A stretch of 64,000 bases of DNA, taken from positions 916,861 to 980,860 of the forward strand of contig OY970338.1 in assembly GCA_963717515.1 (NCBI GenBank), read 5' to 3'. The number at the start of each line of letters is the position of its first letter. Within the stretch, counting starts at the first letter, position 1. The translations under genes and the position numbers were made by a program. This DNA comes from an uncultured Candidatus Woesearchaeota archaeon. Its GTDB lineage: Archaea > Nanobdellota > Nanobdellia > Woesearchaeales > DSVV01. This document shows, in pieces, positions 4,330 through 58,871 of the stretch. A model generated the notes under the pieces. That model did no database searches. It had not been told where the DNA came from and worked only from the letters and a program-made list of their open reading frames with translations.

Positions 4330-5346
4330 CTACAGCCTGCCATACTCATGGAGCTTCCTTGCAATCAGCACGGCATTTAGGGCAGCACCCCTCAATAGCT
4401 GGTCACCGCAGACGAACATCCTGACACCCTTCCTATTGCCGTCAAGAGCCCTGATACGCCCGACTGCCACAGGATATACCCCTGTCGTGTTCGAGGGCAT
4501 TGGATATTCCAGGTTTTGGGGGTCATCCCTCAACTTTATCATGGGCTCTCTGCTTAACAGGGTCCTGTATTCGTCATAATCCACAGGATCCATTGTCTCC
4601 ACAGCGATGTCCAGAGCATGGGAACGCAGCACAGGCACCCTGACGCAGGTGCTGGATATCCCAACCCTGTCGTCCAGGCCGAGTATCTTTCTTGTCTCCC
4701 ATTTTATCTTCATCTCCTCTCTTGTGTAGCCGTTGTCCATGAACTTGTCGATATGCGGAATCACATTGAAAGGCAGTGGATGCTGGAATTTCCTGTTGCC
4801 CATTGGCCTGCCGTCCAGGTAGTTCCTGGTCTCTTGAAGAAGCTCCTCTCTCCCGCCGTCGCCTGCTCCGCTTGCAGACTGCCATGTCGAGACTGTTATG
4901 TATTCGATGCCTGCCATCTCATCAAGCTTGTGAAGAGGGAGTGCAGCTATCGCCGTGGTGCAGTTCGGGTTGGCTATAAGCCTGGAAGGATGGTCCCTAA
5001 GGATGTGCCCGTTTATCTCAGGAACTATGAGGGGGATATCAGGCTCTTGCCTGAAAGCCTGGGAATTGTCGATCACATAACAATGCGATTCCATGGCCTT
5101 TTCCCGGTTTTTCCTGGACCAGTCGGCATTGATAGACCAGAAAGCAAGGTCAAGGCCAGAATAATCCGCATCTTCAGTCTTTTTCACCTCGATGATGCCA
5201 GAGGGCGTATCCATGACCGTGCCTGCCGACCGGCCTGCATATAGGGACATTGCCCCGACAGGAAACCTGATGTCGTCAAGCAACTTGAGCAACTCCTTTC
5301 CGACCCCGCCGGTCGCCCCGAAGATGCCTATTTTTATTTTCTTCAT
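4330..5346 (-). CDS. asd: aspartate-semialdehyde dehydrogenase
   Basis: Rossmann fold IGIFGATGGVGKELLKLL, active-site IANPNCTT, and SASGAG motifs. Confidence 0.85.
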   Translation of the reverse strand: MKKIKIGIFGATGGVGKELLKLLDDIRFPVGAMSLYAGRSAGTVMDTPSGIIEVKKTEDADYSGLDLAFWSINADWSRKNREKAMESHCYVIDNSQAFRQEPDIPLIVPEINGHILRDHPSRLIANPNCTTAIAALPLHKLDEMAGIEYITVSTWQSASGAGDGGREELLQETRNYLDGRPMGNRKFQHPLPFNVIPHIDKFMDNGYTREEMKIKWETRKILGLDDRVGISSTCVRVPVLRSHALDIAVETMDPVDYDEYRTLLSREPMIKLRDDPQNLEYPMPSNTTGVYPVAVGRIRALDGNRKGVRMFVCGDQLLRGAALNAVLIARKLHEYGRL

Positions 5347-5520
5347 TTGTATACCAATAAGCTTTCAGAATATTTAAGGGTTATTGAACCAATTATGGAC
5401 ATCTATGTAATAATTATGGATATTTCTCCTCATAGTCATAAAAAAGGAATATTTAATAACTTCAACTGCTGTTGAATCCTTGGAAAATTATTAATATATG
5501 ATGCGGATAGCAGGAAAAGG

Positions 5521-22342: not shown

Positions 22343-23413
22343 ATGAATAATTTTAAATATGAATTAAAAAATCAATTCCTGATGGGCCTGACGAAAAAGC
22401 AGTACAACCAGATAAGGGATGAGCTTGACACATGCACAAGGCCGCTCTTCTATTTCCATGACGATCCTGACGGGCTATGCTCGTTTCTACAGTTCTATAA
22501 TTACATACATGAAGGCTACGGGGTCGTTGTCAAGAGCAGGCCGCTAATCGACATGAAGTTCCTTGGGAAGGTCGAGACCTACAATCCTGACAAGATATTC
22601 GTCCTTGACATCGCCGGCATTGAGCAGGAATTCGTGGATTCTGCAAAAAGGCCCCTTATCTGGGTCGACCATCATCCGCGCCAGGAGATCGAAAGGGTCA
22701 GGTACTTCAACCCCATGCCAAAGGGCAATCCCTGCGTGTCATACCTAACCTACAAGACCGTAAAAGAGAGCCTCTGGATTGCAATGGTAGGATGCATCAG
22801 CGACATGTACTGGCCAAAGGACCTGCTGGGTGAATTCAGGAAAAGATATCCAGGCCTTCTGCCGAAGAAAATCAAGGATGTGCGCACCGCCCTGTATGAA
22901 AGCGACGCAGGGAAGCTTGCCAGGATATTCTCTGCAGTGCTGAAAGGTACGAGCAGCGATGCGATGAAATATGTAAAGGCTCTTACAAGGGTGAAGGAGC
23001 CTGGGGAGATACTGGACCAGGAGGATGCAAGGGGCAAATTCATATTCAAGAGATACAAGGAGATAGACAGGGAATACCAGAAGCTCCTCAGGGCCGCTAA
23101 AAAGAAGGTGACTGATGACAGCATAGCACTTTTCATATACAGGGAAAGCAAGTTCGCTTTTTCCGGCGACATTGCAAATGAGATGCTCTACAGGTTCCCG
23201 GAAAAGCTCGTCATCATAGGAAGGGAGAAGAGCGGCGAGGTCAAGTGCAGCCTGCGCTCAAACGACCTGGTGCTTCCGCCGATGATAGGGAAGGCCCTTG
23301 TGGGATGCGAGGGATACGGTGGAGGACATGACCATGCGTGCGGGGCCTGCATAAAGCAGGAGGATTTCGAGAGGTTCATGGAGAATCTCAGGGGTCAACT
23401 GGATACAAATTGA
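22343..23413 (+). CDS. DHH/DHHA1-family phosphoesterase (NrnA/RecJ-like)
   Basis: Motifs HDDPDGLCS, VLDIAG, VDHH, and GGGHDHACGA (DHHA1). Confidence 0.75.
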   Translation: MNNFKYELKNQFLMGLTKKQYNQIRDELDTCTRPLFYFHDDPDGLCSFLQFYNYIHEGYGVVVKSRPLIDMKFLGKVETYNPDKIFVLDIAGIEQEFVDSAKRPLIWVDHHPRQEIERVRYFNPMPKGNPCVSYLTYKTVKESLWIAMVGCISDMYWPKDLLGEFRKRYPGLLPKKIKDVRTALYESDAGKLARIFSAVLKGTSSDAMKYVKALTRVKEPGEILDQEDARGKFIFKRYKEIDREYQKLLRAAKKKVTDDSIALFIYRESKFAFSGDIANEMLYRFPEKLVIIGREKSGEVKCSLRSNDLVLPPMIGKALVGCEGYGGGHDHACGACIKQEDFERFMENLRGQLDTN

Positions 23414-24558
23414 TAAAGGATTTCCCTGACTTTGTACGACGCAGCCATTTTTTTCAGGTTTTTTTCTATAATCTGTTTGGCTCTCTGCTTTGCCCCCTTA
23501 TATTTGTATTTCTCTCCGATCTCTTTAAAAGTATGCTCCCTGTCATAACCAATGGCGTATTTCATCTTAATCATGTCTCTTGCCTTTCTATCCAGCCTAT
23601 CCAATTCAGCTGTCAACTTTTCTGATAGGTCATTTCCGCAGACAGCAGAAAAAGGCGAGGGCATCTTATCATCTGCAATAATATCAATTCTTGGAACATC
23701 ATAATTTTTATGTGTTTTCTCATCAAGTGAAAAGGTTTGATTCATGAGTATCATATATTCCGACACTTTTTTTTTTGGCAGATTGGACAAATCCGCAAGC
23801 TCTCTAATTGTTGCATCCTCTCCTGTCCGGCGATAGATCTCATCCTTATACCGCATGATGGCAAAATATTTTTTTGCTGCATCAAGGCCCAACTTATCAT
23901 TACTTCCTTTGATAATGGCCATCATCATGTAGCATTTTATCCAATAGGCTGCGTATGTGCTGAATCTGTTGGTTTTTCTATTTTCGGCATTTTCCGCTGC
24001 TGAAAACAGGCCCCAATTGCCTTCATTCACAAGATCTGAAAACTCAATATTTGGGTTCTCTGACATATGATAATTTAGATTACTATAGCTCTTTGCGATG
24101 ATTTTCACAAGATCCTGCTGCGAGTCCACCAGGATATTGACATCCATCATTTTTTTGTCGACATAACTCTTCAGGGATTGTGCAGTGCCATTGAATGATT
24201 TTTTTGCATTCATCTCATTGACAATGGAATGCCCATATTCATTGTCGACAAGCAAAGGAAAAAGCCTGCTATTGACAATCTTCCTGATATAGTCCCCATA
24301 TTTCCCGTTCGATGAGCCATTATTGTTTAATTCTGAAGCAGAATTAAGATTTGGCCTGAAGATATCGATATGCGTTTTCCAATGGGGCCTGGTTCCTTCT
24401 AAATATTCCAATGGAGGATAAATAAAATCAGGAAATCTGGGAATACCCATTGCAATATTGAATATCTTCTCTTTTTCGATATTTTTATGCCTGATTATCT
24501 GCCTCTCCTGTTCCCGGCTGAGCCTTCTGTCCCCATTTTGCCTATAGTTTATCATCAT
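23395..24558 (-). CDS. sigma-70-family RNA polymerase sigma factor homolog (regions 2-4) with a unique N-terminal extension of about 150 aa
   Basis: Region 2 is DLVNEGNWGLFSAAENAENRKTNRFSTYAAYWIK (compare bacterial [17 protein letters not shown]....[12 protein letters not shown]). A region 3-like segment is TIRELADLSNLPKKKVSEYM..FSLDE. A region 4-like segment is LDRKARDMIKMKY.....TFKEIGEKY...GAKQRAKQIIEKNLKKM. Confidence 0.75.
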   Translation of the reverse strand: MMINYRQNGDRRLSREQERQIIRHKNIEKEKIFNIAMGIPRFPDFIYPPLEYLEGTRPHWKTHIDIFRPNLNSASELNNNGSSNGKYGDYIRKIVNSRLFPLLVDNEYGHSIVNEMNAKKSFNGTAQSLKSYVDKKMMDVNILVDSQQDLVKIIAKSYSNLNYHMSENPNIEFSDLVNEGNWGLFSAAENAENRKTNRFSTYAAYWIKCYMMMAIIKGSNDKLGLDAAKKYFAIMRYKDEIYRRTGEDATIRELADLSNLPKKKVSEYMILMNQTFSLDEKTHKNYDVPRIDIIADDKMPSPFSAVCGNDLSEKLTAELDRLDRKARDMIKMKYAIGYDREHTFKEIGEKYKYKGAKQRAKQIIEKNLKKMAASYKVREILYQFVSS

Positions 24559-24660: not shown

Positions 24661-24799
24661 GCGTCGGTGGTCTAATGGCTACAACCTTTTATGTAATGCA
24701 ATAATCGGTTGCTGTAAATGACTGCGGCCTTCCATAATCCTACAGCAACATGCGGATTGAAGCGAGCCGCCTATCCGGGTTCAAATCCCGGCCGACGCA
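24661..24799 (+). tRNA. tRNA-Gly(UCC) with two introns (37 nt in the D-loop at 24682-24718; 30 nt at the canonical 37/38 site, 24735-24764)
   Basis: Hand-folded. Acceptor GCGTCGG/CCGACGC; D-stem GUCU/UGAC; anticodon stem GCGGC/GCCGC; loop CUUCCA[intron]A; T-arm CCGGG-TTCAAAT-CCCGG; discriminator A. The mature length adds up to 72 nt. No CCA is encoded. Confidence 0.8.
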
Positions 24800-25037
24800 T
24801 ATATTTTCTTTGATTATCCTGAATGTTTCCGGGATTTGAACACACTGCGAAAACCTTACTATTTTCTTGTGCCTCTCGTTGACTTCGTCAACTTCAAGGA
24901 ATCCCGGCCGACGCATATATTTTCTTTGATTAACCTGAATGTTTCCGGGATTTGAACACACTGCGAAAACCTTACTGTTTTCTTGTGCCTCTCGTTGACT
25001 TCGTCAACTTCAAGGAATCCCGGCCGACGCATATATT
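24784..25037 (+). repeat. tandem direct repeat, 116-bp period, 2 full units plus a 22-bp third core; each unit begins with the tRNA-Gly 3' end (AATCCCGGCCGACGCATATATT)
   Basis: The units at 24784-24899 and 24900-25015 differ at 2 positions. The third core is at 25016-25037. Each unit contains the hairpin GTTGAC-TTC-GTCAAC and an inverted copy of the T-arm (CCGGGATTTGAAC). Confidence 0.9.
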
Positions 25038-53502: not shown

Positions 53503-53913
53503 ATGAAGTACAGATTTTTCGAGCACACTGCTGATGCCAAGTTCCGGGCATACGGCAAAGACCATGAGGAGGCATTCTCGAATGCAGCGCTTGCATTGTC
53601 CTCTATCATGATTGGGCATGAGAAGGTAAAGCCTAAGGAAGAAGTAAAAATCAATGTCGAGGGCAGCGATAAGAAGTCGCTGCTTTACAATTTCCTAGAG
53701 GAGCTTCTTTTTTTGCTTGATACCAAAGGCTTCCTCCTGCACGATGTCAAGGAGCTCAGGATTGACGGGCTGAAGCTGAGTGCGGTGCTTTCTGGTGATA
53801 CTGATATTGGAAAGTATGCAGTCAATGGGGATGTCAAGGCTGTGACCTACAACCAGATGGAGATATCTGAACAGAAGGGGAAGTGCATGGTGCAGGTCGT
53901 AGTCGACATATGA
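53503..53913 (+). CDS. archease (RtcB activator)
   Basis: The hallmark N-terminus is MKYRFFEHTADAKFRAYG, with C-terminal VKAVTYNQMEI. Confidence 0.9.
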   Translation: MKYRFFEHTADAKFRAYGKDHEEAFSNAALALSSIMIGHEKVKPKEEVKINVEGSDKKSLLYNFLEELLFLLDTKGFLLHDVKELRIDGLKLSAVLSGDTDIGKYAVNGDVKAVTYNQMEISEQKGKCMVQVVVDI

Positions 53914-53962: not shown

Positions 53963-55384
53963 ATGGAACTGAAGAAGATAGATGACAATACATGGGAGAT
54001 ACCCAAAAAGGGGGGTATGAGGGTGCCTGGAAGGGTGTTCGCCTCAGAAAGGCTTCTCGCTCTGATGAAGAAAGACATCACCCTCCAGCAGGTTGCGAAT
54101 GTCGCCCATCTCAAAGGCATAATCAGGCATTCCATCGCATGCCCTGACGCGCACCAGGGCTACGGGTTCAGCATAGGCGGAGTTGCAGCCTTCGATCTAG
54201 ACGAAGGCATAGTCAGCCCCGGCGGTGTCGGATACGACATCAACTGCGGGGTAAGGCTTCTGCGCACCGATTTCACAGAAAAAGAGGTCACGGGCAAAAG
54301 GAAAGAGCTTCTCGACGGGTTCTTCAAAGAAGTCCCTGCTGGTGTCGGAAAAGGCGGCCAGACAAGGGTCACGAGGGATATCCTGTCTGAGGTCATTGTA
54401 AAAGGGGCGGAATGGGCTTATAAGAACGGCTATGGTACCAAAGAGGATCTGCAGCGCACAGAGGAATACGGCAGGATGCCCAATGCAGACCCGAATGCTG
54501 TATCAGACAGGGCCATGAAAAGGGGCATGCCCCAGCTCGGCACGCTCGGCGCAGGCAATCATTTCCTGGAGATCCAGAAAGTCGACAGGATATATGATGA
54601 AAATACAGCAAAGAAGTTCGGCGTGACAAAGACAGGCCAGATAAATGTCATGATACACTGCGGAAGCAGGGGGCTTGGTCATCAGGTCGCCTCTGATTAT
54701 ATCCAGAGCATGGAGAGAAAATATGGTTTTGCTGGTTTGCCTGACCGGGAACTGGTCAATGCACCTATCCAGTCAGAGCTTGGACAAAATTACATGAAAG
54801 CAATGGCAGGAGCAATCAATTTCGCATTCGTGAACAGGCAGATGATTGCGCACTGGACCAGAGGTGTCTTTGAGAAGGTCATGGGTACGTCTGATGGCAT
54901 GGGGCAGGTCTATGATGTCTGCCACAATCTCGCGAAAATAGAGAAGCATGATATTGATGGCTCGCTTAAAAAAGTCTGCGTGCACAGGAAAGGCGCGACG
55001 AGGTCGTTCGGCCCGGGAAGAGATGAGATTCCTGAGGTCTACAGGGAAACCGGCCAGCCGGTGCTGATTCCCGGGAGCATGGGGACTGCATCATATGTGC
55101 TTGTGGGCACGAAAAAGGCTGAGGAGCTCACATTCGGCTCGACTGCGCACGGCGCAGGCAGGGTCATGTCAAGGCATGAGGCCATGAGGAACTACAGGGG
55201 CGAGCAGGTGACAAGTGACCTTGCAAAGAAGGGCATCATGATAAAGGGCGCATCCATGAAAGGGATTGCCGAGGAGACCTACCAGGCGTACAAGGATGTC
55301 GACGAGGTCGTCAGGGTCAGCCATGCGGCAGGCATCGGGAAACTGGTGTACAGGGTCGTGCCTATCGCTGTGATGAAGGGATAG
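53963..55384 (+). CDS. rtcB: RNA-splicing ligase RtcB
   Basis: Contains PDAHQGYGFSIGGV, GYDINCGVR, GAGNHFLE, HCGSRGLG, and the catalytic His region TAHGAGR. Confidence 0.95.
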   Translation: MELKKIDDNTWEIPKKGGMRVPGRVFASERLLALMKKDITLQQVANVAHLKGIIRHSIACPDAHQGYGFSIGGVAAFDLDEGIVSPGGVGYDINCGVRLLRTDFTEKEVTGKRKELLDGFFKEVPAGVGKGGQTRVTRDILSEVIVKGAEWAYKNGYGTKEDLQRTEEYGRMPNADPNAVSDRAMKRGMPQLGTLGAGNHFLEIQKVDRIYDENTAKKFGVTKTGQINVMIHCGSRGLGHQVASDYIQSMERKYGFAGLPDRELVNAPIQSELGQNYMKAMAGAINFAFVNRQMIAHWTRGVFEKVMGTSDGMGQVYDVCHNLAKIEKHDIDGSLKKVCVHRKGATRSFGPGRDEIPEVYRETGQPVLIPGSMGTASYVLVGTKKAEELTFGSTAHGAGRVMSRHEAMRNYRGEQVTSDLAKKGIMIKGASMKGIAEETYQAYKDVDEVVRVSHAAGIGKLVYRVVPIAVMKG

Positions 55385-56642: not shown

Positions 56643-57245
56643 CTAGACCTCTATTATCTTGCCTTCCTTGCCCACGTTCAGGACCTTGGTGTTGCCTATC
56701 TTCTCCTCGAGACCCTCTGCCTCGTGCACATGGCTGCAGAGCATGATGTCAGGCTTGAATGACTCGACTGCCTTCCTGATGCTGTCGCTTCCCGGAAAGA
56801 AGCTCGTGAACTTCTCCATCTTGGTGCCCGAGGGATGGACATGCGTCACCATTATCTTCTTCTTGAGGTATTTGACCCTGTCGAAGCCTTTCTTGAGCAG
56901 GCTGTAAATCTCTTTTTCAGATAGCTGCTCAACACCGATGTTCGCCCCGCCTGCACCGAATATCCCCACATCCTTGTACCTGACCGAGTACCCGTGGATG
57001 TTCTTTATGGGGTACATCTCTGCAAGGAAGTCGGCAGTGGCAAAGCTGTCATGGTTTCCCGGGACGAACAATACCTTCTTATGCCTCTTGACAAAAGGCC
57101 CCATCAGCCCGGTCGTGTCCCTGTCGAAATTGGTTATGTCTCCGCAGATTATGACCAGGTCTACATCCTCCTTGTCAGCCTTCTTTGCGAGCTTCTCTGC
57201 CAGGCGGGAGTCTCCATGCAGGTCCCCGAATGCGAGTATCTTCAT
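56643..57245 (-). CDS. metallophosphoesterase (MJ0936/YfcE-like)
   Basis: MKILAFGDLHG, GDITN, the GNHD motif (VPGNHD), and HVH/GH motifs. Confidence 0.85.
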   Translation of the reverse strand: MKILAFGDLHGDSRLAEKLAKKADKEDVDLVIICGDITNFDRDTTGLMGPFVKRHKKVLFVPGNHDSFATADFLAEMYPIKNIHGYSVRYKDVGIFGAGGANIGVEQLSEKEIYSLLKKGFDRVKYLKKKIMVTHVHPSGTKMEKFTSFFPGSDSIRKAVESFKPDIMLCSHVHEAEGLEEKIGNTKVLNVGKEGKIIEV

Positions 57246-57334
57246 GGTTGAGAAGGAGAAAAATGGTTTATTTAAAGTTAATGTTGAAAAGAACTATAAT
57301 ATTTCAGGATTTTGCCAATCCAGAAAAGAAAAGA

Positions 57335-57407
57335 TAGCCCTGCACGGATTTGAACCGTGGTCTCCAGGCCCAGAACCTAGAATGCTTGGCCACTACACCA
57401 CAGGGCT
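57335..57407 (-). tRNA. tRNA-Gln(CUG)
   Basis: Hand-folded. Acceptor AGCCCUG/CAGGGCU; anticodon arm CUAGG-UUCUGGG-CCUGG; T-arm CACGG-UUCAAAU-CCGUG. 73 nt, no intron. Confidence 0.85.
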
Positions 57408-57470
57408 GTTATCTTTTTGCTGTCTTTTCTTTGTACTTTTTATGCCGGCCTCGGTCTTGCCTTGAAAAAA

Positions 57471-57686
57471 CAAACGCCGACGCCCGGATTTGTATCGGGA
57501 ATCTCCGATTCCCGGAACCCCTCGTTCGCTCAGAGCGAACTTCAGGGAACCGGGATACTGCAAATAACAAACGCCGACGCCCGGATTTGTATCGGGAATC
57601 TCCGATTCCCGGAACCCCTCGTTCGCTCAGAGCGAACTTCAGGGAACCGGGATACTGCAAATAACAAACGCCGACGCCCGGATTTG
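57471..57686 (-). repeat. tandem direct repeat, 97-bp period: two identical units plus a third core that is the genuine 3' end of tRNA-Ser
   Basis: The units at 57471-57567 and 57568-57664 are identical by eye. Each carries CAAATCCGGGCGTCGGCGTTTG (tRNA-sense), a degenerate T-arm, and two perfect hairpins (CGGGAATC-TCC-GATTCCCG; GTTCGCTC-A-GAGCGAAC). Confidence 0.9.
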
Positions 57687-57751
57687 AACCGGGATATCCA
57701 GAGGAAACCGGCTTTCGAGGCCAGCGCAGTACCAGATTGTGCCACGTCGGC
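57669..57751 (-). tRNA. tRNA-Ser(CGA), long variable arm, no intron
   Basis: Hand-folded. Acceptor GCCGACG/CGUCGGC; anticodon arm CUGGC-CUCGAAA-GCCGG; 14-nt variable arm; T-arm CCCGG-UUCAAAU-CCGGG; discriminator G. 83 nt. Confidence 0.8.
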
Positions 57752-57880
57752 AATTTTGCTTATTTCGTACCATTTGGCTTTGACAAATGGTACTTGGGTG
57801 AATTTTCCCAAGTTTTTAAGCCTGAGGTCTTTTCCGAAGGCGGCAAAAAGCTGGCATGTGCCAGATTGTGCCACGTCGGC
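57752..57880 (-). repeat. hairpin-rich 109-nt segment bounded by a 20-nt direct duplication of the tRNA-Ser 5' end (57732-57751 equals 57861-57880)
   Basis: The exact 20-mer CCAGATTGTGCCACGTCGGC occurs twice, 129 bp apart. The insert holds a 10-bp/7-nt-loop hairpin (57767-57793) and a 6-bp hairpin (57793-57812). In tRNA sense, the upstream copy is followed by a hairpin plus T5. Confidence 0.85.
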
Positions 57881-57936
57881 GTCGTCTGTTTTTAATTGTC
57901 CTTCTGCAAAAACCGGCTCCTGCACAGGTGATCCTA

Positions 57937-58057
57937 TGCCCCAAACGGGATTCGAACCCGTGTCCCGGCCTGTCTTCCTTCGGGAAGACGCCAGGGAAAA
58001 CCCTGTTTTCCCGCTGTCGAGAGGGCCGGATGATTGGCCGGACTACACTATTGGGGC
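57937..58057 (-). tRNA. tRNA-Glu(CUC) with a 46-nt intron at the canonical 37/38 site (57972-58017)
   Basis: Hand-folded. Acceptor GCCCCAA/UUGGGGC; D-arm GUGUAGUCCGGCCAAUCAU, typical of archaeal tRNA-Glu; anticodon stem CGGCC/GGCCG; loop CUCUCG[intron]A; T-arm ACGGG-UUCGAAU-CCCGU. Confidence 0.8.
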
Positions 58058-58083
58058 CTGTAATTCCTGGCGCATGAAAATGA

Positions 58084-58200
58084 TGGGCTCAGGGGGCTTC
58101 GAACCCCCGACCATCCGGTTACCAACAAGCAACGCCTTGGAGGTTCCAAGACGAAGTCTTGATAAGAGCCGGATGCTCTACCAGGCTGAGCTATGAGCCC
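58084..58200 (-). tRNA. tRNA-Lys(CUU) with a 43-nt intron at the canonical 37/38 site (58120-58162)
   Basis: Hand-folded. Acceptor GGGCUCA/UGAGCCC; D-arm GCUC-AGCCUGGUA-GAGC; anticodon stem UCCGG/CCGGA; loop CUCUUA[intron]A; T-arm GGGGG-UUCGAAG-CCCCC. Confidence 0.85.
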
Positions 58201-58307
58201 GTACATATGGCTTCCATGCTGAACCTGCAATATCATTCTTCTGCCATGCCTGTTGCACTTGATACAGAACCGAAAAATCGCTTGTTTTTTAAATCTATCG
58301 GCAAAGG

Positions 58308-58871
58308 CTATCTCTCAATCACCTGTGCCTCTGACATGTTCACTATGGTAGAAGGGGTCCCCCTTATCTCACCGACATCGATCATGAAATCAATATGACG
58401 CCTGATGTCATCATGCAGGGTCTCGAGCGATGTCATGAAAAGCCCTCCTGAAAGGTTCGCCGATGTCGTGATTATCGGAACCTCTGCAATCCTTGCAATC
58501 TCTGTGCACCAGTGGTCAGGGACCCGCACTCCAAGCGTCTCCCTGTCGCTCACGCTCGGAGCCACGCAGTGGGTGTTCTTCAGCGACAATATCAGGGTAT
58601 AGGGGCCAGGGAGCTTATTGAACCAGTCCTCCTCGCTGCTGTATATCTCGCAGTTCTCCCTAATCCAGCCCTTGTCAGGGACCATTACAGAGAAAGGCCT
58701 GTTGAAATTACCCTTTATCTTCCTTATCTTCCTCACAGCATCATCATCGAGCGCATTGCAGCCTATCCCGTATATGGTGTCTGTAGGATAGATGAATATC
58801 GCACCCCTGCGGATGTCTGATATCAGCCTCGCCTTCTTTATCCTGTACTCGTCTGTCGTATAAACCCTCAT
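58308..58871 (-). CDS. tsaC: L-threonylcarbamoyladenylate synthase, YrdC/TsaC-type (single domain)
   Basis: Contains IFIYPTDTIYGIGCNALDDDAVRKIRKIKGNFNRPFSVMV and TSANLSG. Confidence 0.85.
   Translation of the reverse strand: MRVYTTDEYRIKKARLISDIRRGAIFIYPTDTIYGIGCNALDDDAVRKIRKIKGNFNRPFSVMVPDKGWIRENCEIYSSEEDWFNKLPGPYTLILSLKNTHCVAPSVSDRETLGVRVPDHWCTEIARIAEVPIITTSANLSGGLFMTSLETLHDDIRRHIDFMIDVGEIRGTPSTIVNMSEAQVIER

Follow-up and report, generated by a model that had tools for sequence, protein, structure and literature searches.

The tRNA-Ser(CGA) Locus

The stretch of DNA analysed here, 64,000 nucleotides of contig OY970338.1 and referred to below as the window, comes from a DPANN archaeon and has its best protein matches in Woesearchaeota/Nanoarchaeota. 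It carries a cluster of four transfer RNA (tRNA) genes, in which the intact tRNA-Ser(CGA) gene is accompanied on both sides by detached copies of its own ends. Downstream lie two units that each terminate in the tRNA 3′ end, and upstream a copy of the tRNA 5′ end is set off from the gene by a structured spacer. The features are listed in Table 1 and are described below in the sense of the tRNA.

The downstream array is defined by the 22-mer CAAATCCGGGCGTCGGCGTTTG, which occurs on the minus strand at 57471-57492, 57568-57589 and 57665-57686 with no mismatch and with an exact period of 97 nt; by 100 shuffles the number of matches expected is 0. Tandem Repeats Finder reports the region as 57465-57694, period 97, 2.4 copies, with a score of 439, and the repeat fades out within TTTGTTTTTTCAAGG (57465-57474). 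The proximal unit reads, in order, a T-rich linker TTTGTTATTTGCAG, the segment TATCCCGGTTC, a hairpin GTTCGCTC-T-GAGCGAAC, a second hairpin CGGGAATC-GGA-GATTCCCG, a degenerate T arm (CCCGA-TACAAAT-CCGGG, as in both units) and the second core copy. The segment TATCCCGGTTC repeats the last part of the variable arm and the 5′ strand of the T stem. A first-pass annotation made from the letters alone had described the three 3′ ends with their period, two mutually identical units, the degenerate T arm and the two perfect hairpins. All of these coordinates and sequences check out: the units agree at 97 of 97 positions, and the hairpins were recovered as palindromes by an inverted-repeat search.

The same annotation overlooked the 5′ copy at 57858-57880 and, with it, the mirror-image 5′ arrays described below, which matter for the mechanism. 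The 5′ fragment covers the acceptor 5′ strand and the D arm as far as the D loop. It is followed by the spacer B′, in which a hairpin (CTGGCA-CA-TGCCAG) and a run of five T residues form a terminator-like element at 57845-57864. A TATA-like box, TTAAAAA, lies at 57813-57819 and a second hairpin, GTACCATTTG...CAAATGGTAC, at 57767-57793.

Table 1. Features of the two tRNA loci in the window (L001 is the corresponding locus of the closest genome, see text).
Feature	Position	Strand	Remarks
tRNA cluster Lys(CUU)-Glu(CUC)-Ser(CGA)-Gln(CUG)	57335-58200	-	Flanked by the Sua5/YrdC gene (58308-58871) and a metallophosphoesterase gene (56643-57245)
tRNA-Lys(CUU), intron-bearing	58084-58200	-	Assigned from the L001 orthologue and by reading by hand
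tRNA-Glu(CUC)	57937-58057	-	46-nt intron
5′ fragment, copy (22/23) of tRNA-Ser positions 1-23	57858-57880	-	Direct-repeat search; 129 nt upstream of tRNA-Ser
5′ spacer B′, 106 nt	57752-57857	-	Folding z-score -5.0
Intact tRNA-Ser(CGA)	57669-57751	-	Rfam tRNA 57669-57751, 53.9 bits; ARAGORN 57668-57752
Core copy 1, last 22 nt of tRNA-Ser including 4 nt of trailer	57665-57686	-	
Proximal 3′ unit, 97 nt	57572-57668	-	Ends in core copy 2 (57568-57589); folding z-score -3.5
Two perfect palindromes, proximal unit	57593-57611 and 57621-57637		Inverted-repeat search; same as in the distal unit
Distal 3′ unit, 97 nt	57475-57571	-	Ends in core copy 3 (57471-57492)
Two perfect palindromes, distal unit	57496-57514 and 57524-57540		Inverted-repeat search
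tRNA-Gln(CUG)	57335-57407	-	
tRNA-Gly(UCC), two introns	24661-24799	+	Rfam tRNA 40.6 bits; anticodon read by hand
Two 116-nt Gly units	24800-24915 and 24916-25031	+	98% identical; repeat fades out at 25037

A Second Array at tRNA-Gly(UCC)

The first-pass annotation had also pointed to a Gly-linked locus of like architecture, and this locus is real. Tandem Repeats Finder places an array of period 116 with 2.2 copies at 24784-25037, downstream of the tRNA-Gly gene. The core is AATCCCGGCCGACGCA. Each unit holds an inverted copy of the T loop and T-stem 3′ strand of the tRNA itself, CCGGGATTTGAAC (24829-24841 and 24945-24957), and a hairpin GTTGAC-TTC-GTCAAC (24878-24892 and 24994-25008). Comparison confirms that the Ser and Gly spacers have no sequence in common. 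What the two loci do share, again as proposed, is the design: a tRNA 3′ core, palindromes, and n units with n+1 cores. For the Gly locus the source genome itself gave the sole close match, and the next relative, at 60% identity, has no tRNA at this position.

The tRNA-Gly gene is interrupted by an intron of ~38 nt in the D-loop region and by one of 30 nt after position 37; a lenient scan recovered the canonical bulge-helix-bulge (BHB) motif of the latter, anticodon intron. The gene was missed both by default ARAGORN and by an Rfam scan at the gathering threshold. With introns allowed, ARAGORN calls it 'Cys', a call that we reject as an intron artefact. Beside the gene, an open reading frame (ORF) of 387 aa (23395-24558, minus strand) matches bacterial sigma-70 regions 2, 3 and 4 in Pfam, which is unexpected in an archaeon; a similar sigma-70-like ORF (2150-2995) lies directly downstream of tRNA-Ser in a relative (L091).

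Common Anatomy of the Arrays

Without exception the arrays read (core-spacer)n-core, single-unit states included, at the Ser and Gly loci of the window and at L001, L012, L075, L076, L077, L083, L101 and the tRNA-Glu of L091; the 5′ arrays follow the same formula. The junctions fall at fixed landmarks. On the 3′ side nearly all families have an identity block that begins within the T loop (at positions 56-61, mostly at AATCC), and the core ends 1-15 nt beyond the discriminator, within a T run. On the 5′ side each of the five blocks runs from -1/+1 into the D arm, where it ends at nt 13-23. The duplicated block is 18-36 nt long across families.

The spacers measure 44-137 nt, are palindromic and contain no ORF. 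They are more structured than shuffled sequences on both strands. Local alignment of the spacers with the tRNA body, judged against shuffles, was significant only for TATCCCGGTTC in the window and L001, and no similarity was found between spacers and the tRNA introns of the same genome. The first-pass annotation had held that homologous units away from tRNA ends would count against its proposal; none was found, and no dispersed spacer copy either, in the 64 kb of the window and ~300 kb of related loci. Two tRNA-Ser genes of genome UBA9638 have a spacer family (GTTCATGCnCAGAAAT...ATTTCTGGCAC) in common with each other and with another genome. Each core is usually adjoined by a degenerate T-stem 5′ half, and the Gly, Glu and several Ser units carry an inverted copy of the cognate, isotype-matched T loop and T-stem 3′ strand. 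These inverted T-loop copies and degenerate half-stems look like recombinase half-sites.

In L012 and L078-L101 the stand-alone tRNA genes are preceded by a TATA-like box (TTTATAAA or TTTAAAAA) whose distance from the mature 5′ end is almost constant, at -30 to -35, which suggests leaderless or very short-leader tRNA transcripts, as in Nanoarchaeum. At L075, L098 and L102 the canonical TATA-like box, at about -32, precedes the distal fragment instead of the live gene, as it should if the gene originally began at that fragment.

In L088 (~4637-4681) the pseudo-3′-core downstream of tRNA-Ser is split by a two-hairpin insert (AATCCGGGCG, 45 nt, CGTCGGCG), and like hairpin inserts lie within the T loop of pseudo-copies in L093 and L096. 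Small palindromic modules seem to insert into tRNA-like sequence. The tRNA-Glu(CUC) gene of the window has a 46-nt two-hairpin intron (57971-58017, minus strand) without counterpart in the near-identical tRNA-Glu of L001-L005, and this is a gain or loss between very close relatives. L096 also holds a free-standing LAGLIDADG-type endonuclease ORF (4765-5508, plus strand; Pfam PF14528, E-value 6e-8) beside a tRNA cluster with a degenerate unit, a candidate source of breaks for homing-like copying. The RtcB gene of the window (53963-55384) has no intein and the archease gene lies directly upstream (53503-53913), and at L106 (6048-8357) the RtcB gene of a relative has an intein bearing a LAGLIDADG domain.

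Occurrence in Relatives and Copy Number

The closest genome is GCA_964469935.1 (locus L001), in which Sua5 is 89% identical. At the same tRNA-Ser, L001 has two upstream units of 130 nt and one downstream unit of 97 nt, where the window has one upstream and two downstream. A second sample with an identical Sua5 protein (L002) has one 5′ unit only. Copy number thus appears to be polymorphic between the near-identical strains L001 and L002, both of which are short-read assemblies. Copy number differs among the close relatives, and in none of them was a 0-unit allele found. The whole four-tRNA cluster (57246-58307) is present only in this genome and in L001; five other relatives, L006 and L105-L108, with Sua5 62-87% identical, lack any tRNA there, and their Sua5 and metallophosphoesterase genes lie 30-150 nt apart.

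The cores change together with their own tRNA. The T loop reads TTCAAAT in the tRNA and TACAAAT in the unit of the window versus TTCGAAT and TACGA-T in L001, and the D loop reads AATCTGG in the window versus AACCTGG in L001, in gene and fragments alike. This co-variation (A/G in the T loop, T/C in the D loop) indicates continuing exchange between the copies.

Two scans extended the comparison. In metagenomes, we searched for two cores 70-100 nt apart (core-N70-100-core). Chance matches in high-GC bacterial sequence accounted for 35 of the 37 hits, and the two real ones, L012 with one 106-nt unit and L041 with three 102-nt units, represent two further lineages with unrelated spacers. In genomes, the 31-nt tRNA-Ser 3′ end served as the query without requiring a repeat and returned 28 loci, all from Woesearchaeota/Nanoarchaeota and of several isoacceptors; all Ser isoacceptors have the same 5′ and 3′ ends. 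Eight of these 28 loci have a downstream pseudo-3′-end, or nine when the interrupted core of L088 is counted. When the window and L012 were added and a pseudo-core was defined as a match of at least 13 of 16 within 300 nt downstream, 10 of 30 tRNA-Ser loci had one, against 1 of 1,656 control windows. Several of the metagenome-assembled genomes (MAGs) with Woesearchaeota-type tRNA-Ser among L075-L102 bear the public label 'uncultured Methanosarcinales archaeon', probably a taxonomic mislabel.

Direction is strict. Of 56 tRNAs, 13 have a further copy of their 3′ 14-mer downstream and 8 a further copy of their 5′ 14-mer upstream, with one case each in the wrong-direction controls. The non-Ser cases are tRNA-Gly in the window and tRNA-Glu in L091. 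The proposal that the two loci of the window reflect a recurring process and not a random duplication is supported by these arrays at other tRNA loci in relatives; their absence, together with read-level signs of an artefact, was what the first-pass annotation had named as refuting it.

Short-read contigs of run ERR11571143 reproduce the distal 5′-fragment junction (L110, which breaks exactly there) and the last Gly core/unit junction (L103, which breaks inside the last unit), and like architecture is present in independent MAGs, single-amplified genomes and metagenomes of relatives. An artefact is unlikely, and a falsely expanded repeat deserves next to no credence, given junctions seen in independent short-read assemblies and an architecture that recurs across independent data sets. 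In its favour, the short-read contigs do break at the repeats and the copy number itself is without independent confirmation. In practice, short-read assemblies tend to break where a tRNA cluster carries such units, and the annotation of tRNAs can be led astray by them.

Constraint and Structure of the Spacers

The whole Sua5-metallophosphoesterase intergenic region was aligned between the window and L001. Identity reached 94% in the 5′ spacer and 87% in the body of the 3′ unit, compared with 26-67% in the neighbouring spacers and 72% in the Lys intron. Of the 28 predicted pairs in the 3′ unit, three are changed on both sides and none is broken, and the other differences fall in loops or in the linker. 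Spacers more alike than neutral DNA, with palindromes kept by paired changes, indicate constraint, which may serve either their own propagation or a use by the host as promoter, terminator or trailer. Paired changes in a perfect palindrome can come about without selection as well, when one arm serves as template for correcting the other, as is established for quasipalindromes.

The fold energies have no strand bias, as nine units favour the sense and eight the antisense strand. The signal is accordingly that of palindromic DNA, or of structure as such, and not demonstrably of RNA. Among the covariance models of Rfam 15 only tRNAs match the loci, and the units match nothing even at E-values up to 5.

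A Possible Origin by Conservative Recombination in tRNA Stem-Loops

The reading that we favour, tentatively and with somewhat less than even confidence, is that the arrays are DNA-level cassettes produced by conservative, integrase-style recombination in tRNA stem-loops and amplified by unequal exchange between cores. Conservative site-specific recombination at a tRNA gene yields just such features: the (AB)nA order, fixed loop junctions, restoration of the gene and a 5′ spacer that bears a promoter. As in an att duplication, a terminal tRNA repeat flanks the insert, and the proximal copy is scored as a full tRNA by both Rfam and ARAGORN. In nearly all families the junction lies at a dyad-symmetric stem-loop, the T loop on the 3′ side and the D loop or arm on the 5′ side. 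We also count for recombination the strict direction, with 3′ copies downstream and 5′ copies upstream, and the spacer family common to two tRNA-Ser genes and a second genome. To the same side belong the half-site-like sequences beside the cores, the boxes ahead of the distal fragments in L075, L098 and L102, the difference in copy number between L001 and L002, the co-variation of each core with its tRNA, and the agreement with what is published on archaeal tyrosine recombinases.

At tRNA-Ser, a short foreign, palindrome-rich segment would have entered the gene at the T loop, bringing its own copy of the sequence from the T loop to a few bases beyond the 3′ end. The gene would stay intact and its original 3′ end would be displaced downstream, giving core-spacer-core. 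A mirror event at the D loop would have introduced a segment carrying positions 1-23 together with the terminator-like hairpin and the promoter-like box, with the original 5′ end left upstream as a dead fragment. The comparison with relatives shows that recombination or slippage between identical cores alters the copy number and keeps the cores identical to the live tRNA. The spacers are constrained and their palindromes preserved through paired changes. The putative recombining enzyme is not encoded beside the arrays.

Several results weigh against this account. Pfam searches of the genes flanking both loci of the window and of 10 genes downstream of tRNA-Ser in relatives found no integrase or mobile-element gene next to the arrays, only housekeeping genes. 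In a Pfam scan of all window ORFs no integrase is among the top 25 families listed, which leaves some small chance of one elsewhere in the 64 kb. In ~30 loci of up to 8 kb there was no distant copy of a core and hence no integrated element of full size. In IMG/VR, the 16-nt core and three spacer motifs gave chance matches in high-GC phages or no match; no viral contig had the core in an attP-like context or any spacer motif, although the database samples the viruses of this lineage poorly. In no case does the junction fall in the anticodon loop, which integrases use most commonly. With a length of 44-137 bp the spacers are much too short to be autonomous elements, and too short to circularise as double-stranded DNA. 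As a 0-unit allele is missing among close relatives, insertion as a unit is deduced and not seen. Finally, spacer conservation and compensatory changes are unexpected for dead scars and could mean a host function. Of the three explanations put forward in the first-pass annotation, mini integrative elements come nearest to these results: the T-loop and D-loop junctions, the (AB)nA order and the restored gene agree with them, and the missing integrase, full-size element, viral attP and dispersed copies do not. The att-site decoys stay hypothetical, and for tRNA-3′-half-like RNAs neither the fold energies nor Rfam gave a sign.

Alternative Explanations

In one alternative the units are host-selected expression or processing modules, transcribed with the tRNA cluster. 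This view is partly compatible with recombination, as an account of why the units are maintained, and we consider it unlikely, though a serious contender. The modules could act as promoter or terminator, as insulating hairpins, or as pseudo-minihelices in which a T-arm hairpin and an acceptor 3′ strand, pairable with the 5′ fragment upstream, would direct RNase P, RNase Z or other enzymes in processing a polycistronic precursor; their origin would be secondary. The units are conserved well above the neighbouring spacers, all three stem substitutions are compensatory with none of 28 pairs broken, and the pseudo T stems of L012, L083 and L101 are kept partly through G-T (G-U) pairs. Moreover, tRNA-Glu, tRNA-Ser and tRNA-Gln in the window and L001 have no TATA box of their own, which places the units probably inside a precursor, and B′ presents a hairpin with T5 and then a TATA-like box. 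However, folding without strand bias gives no RNA-specific signal, no Rfam family matches, two thirds of the tRNA-Ser genes with an identical 3′ end have no units, strains differ freely in copy number, each lineage has spacer sequences unrelated to those of others, and the paired changes may arise without selection. Another alternative is break repair with filler DNA and no dedicated recombinase, likewise an unlikely account but not a negligible one. tRNA genes, heavily transcribed and structured, would be prone to breaks; unequal end joining between sister copies with breaks in a loop and just beyond the gene would leave the terminal segment duplicated, palindromic snap-back or templated filler would go into the joint, and later slippage would change the copy number. 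The spacers do consist of perfect short palindromes with direct or inverted snippets of the adjacent T arm (TATCCCGGTTC in the Ser units of the window, CCGGGATTTGAAC in the Gly units). The two strands are structured to the same degree, the spacers are locus-specific, and neither a recombinase nor an element was found. Such repair nevertheless calls for breaks concentrated at precisely the T loop, the D loop and +1, and this in many independent families. It leaves unexplained the 87-94% conservation of spacers beside neighbours at 26-67%, the spacer family at two tRNA-Ser loci and in two genomes, and the terminator- and promoter-like signals of the 5′ spacers.

Decay of a tandem Ser-Ser pair, one copy of which lost its 5′ and middle parts while gene conversion kept the 3′ end identical, would account for cores that evolve in concert with the tRNA and for units of 94-116 nt, near the length of a tRNA plus a short spacer, and tandem Ser genes do exist (L090). 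We hold it to be quite improbable, since spacer bodies are unlike the 5′ or middle part of their own tRNA in six of eight families, the 3′ units lack an acceptor 5′ strand, units of 73 and 150 nt do not fit, and 5′ fragments that start at +1 and stop in the D loop stay unexplained. Simple tandem duplication of native sequence is ruled out by single-unit arrays with an extra terminal core and by a spacer foreign to the tRNA body; a slippage-type tandem repeat was rejected on the same (AB)nA order with n=1 and unrelated spacer, as no native segment repeated a whole number of times gives such an array. Pieces of split or tri-split tRNAs of the Nanoarchaeum/Caldivirga type, to be joined by splicing endonuclease and RtcB to middle pieces encoded elsewhere, would suit a phylum known for split tRNAs, a genome rich in tRNA introns with RtcB and archease 2 kb away, and 5′ and 3′ ends that are the same in all Ser isoacceptors. 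To this we give only the slightest probability: an intact gene lies between the fragments, these are without the complementary leader or trailer by which split genes are defined, the unit leader taken as reverse complement matches units only, and the 5′ fragment runs straight into a hairpin and T5. The lenient BHB scan, which is noisy with many false positives, finds the Gly intron and nothing that would splice a unit into a tRNA. Two further candidates were dismissed. The identical spacers, and the absence of cas domains among the window proteins scanned, do not agree with an array of clustered regularly interspaced short palindromic repeats (CRISPR). A miniature inverted-repeat transposable element or other transposon does not fit the lack of dispersed copies, a block of 18-36 nt that is not fixed, and inverted ends amounting only to the 5-bp stem GTATC/GATAC.

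Comparison with Known Systems

Archaeal tyrosine recombinases target the anticodon or T stem-loop of a tRNA gene or its 3′ end, and cleavage in the D and T loops has been proposed (PMC8371274). The pT26-2 family targets tRNA-Ser and tRNA-Leu, and pTN3-type enzymes use the tRNA gene's 5′ half, in which case the element supplies the promoter (PMC8371274). tRNA fragments left by integration have been documented across elements of 9-23 kb (PMC9897764; PMC3293823). The attL/attR duplications of these systems (3′ in pT26-2 and SSV types, 5′ half in pTN3 type) resemble the arrays in that a terminal tRNA direct repeat brackets the insert, the gene is regenerated, junctions are dyad-symmetric, 5′-side insertions have their own promoter, and tRNA-Ser is a known target (PMC8371274; PMC9897764). 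They bracket 9-23 kb or more with an integrase, whereas the arrays described here are gene-less over 44-137 bp, tandemly amplified, present on both sides of the same gene and found at about one third of tRNA-Ser genes with no full-size element seen.

The disruption model for Caldiarchaeum subterraneum (Sugahara et al. 2012, PMC3293823) shares with our locus a 5′ fragment upstream of an intact copy and the gain and loss of introns among close relatives, in our case of the Glu intron, which the window has and L001 and L002 lack. In C. subterraneum 1.8 kb and a recombinase gene separate the fragment from the intact copy; at our locus the distance is 129 nt and contains no gene. Free-standing 5′ and 3′ pieces likewise occur, in a related lineage, among the split, tri-split and permuted tRNA genes of Nanoarchaeum, Caldivirga and Thermofilum, but the pieces here flank an intact gene and are without complementary splicing flanks.

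Outside tRNA biology, integron attC cassettes and Xer-exploiting systems (integrative mobile elements exploiting Xer, IMEX, and pdif modules) also form arrays of short modules between repeated recombination sites. Their palindromic sites conserve structure over sequence and their recombinase can act in trans. In the present arrays the sites are tRNA ends and the modules are gene-less and identical within an array; any link to IntI or Xer would be hypothetical. A slippage minisatellite has identical head-to-tail units and copy-number polymorphism as well, and differs from the arrays by their extra terminal core, single-unit states included, boundaries at tRNA landmarks and foreign spacer. A search of the literature available to us returned no description of tandem ~100-nt gene-less end-duplication arrays at archaeal tRNA genes, and a 2026 preprint on 208 complete Nanobdellota genomes makes no mention of such arrays.

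Implications for tRNA Gene Fragmentation

Duplication of tRNA ends by recombination is already known, and the arrays bear on the origin of the fragmented tRNA genes of this phylum. How archaeal tRNA genes came to be fragmented (split, tri-split, permuted, with rapid intron gain and loss) is an open question, and the customary explanation, that mobile elements integrate into these genes, is based on a few cases of large elements. In a lineage related to Nanoarchaeum we find frequent, recent and polymorphic duplication of both tRNA end-pieces, cut at the D and T loops, on a scale of 100 bp, with no visible element and beside introns that vary between close relatives.

Carried further, the recombination account would have gene-less cassettes of ~100 nt in Woesearchaeota/Nanobdellota home to tRNA T and D loops by attC-like folded-hairpin recombination, carry a replacement tRNA end that spares the host gene, persist under structural selection and generate the fragmented, split and intron-rich tRNA genes of the phylum. 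This larger picture is, in our estimate, doubtful as a whole. The system is tractable, since there are hundreds of complete Nanobdellota genomes in which junctions and copy numbers can be scored and candidate recombinases correlated with the arrays. If the units are neutral scars of break repair they would be a curiosity; if they are active cassettes or processing modules, they would represent a new class of element.

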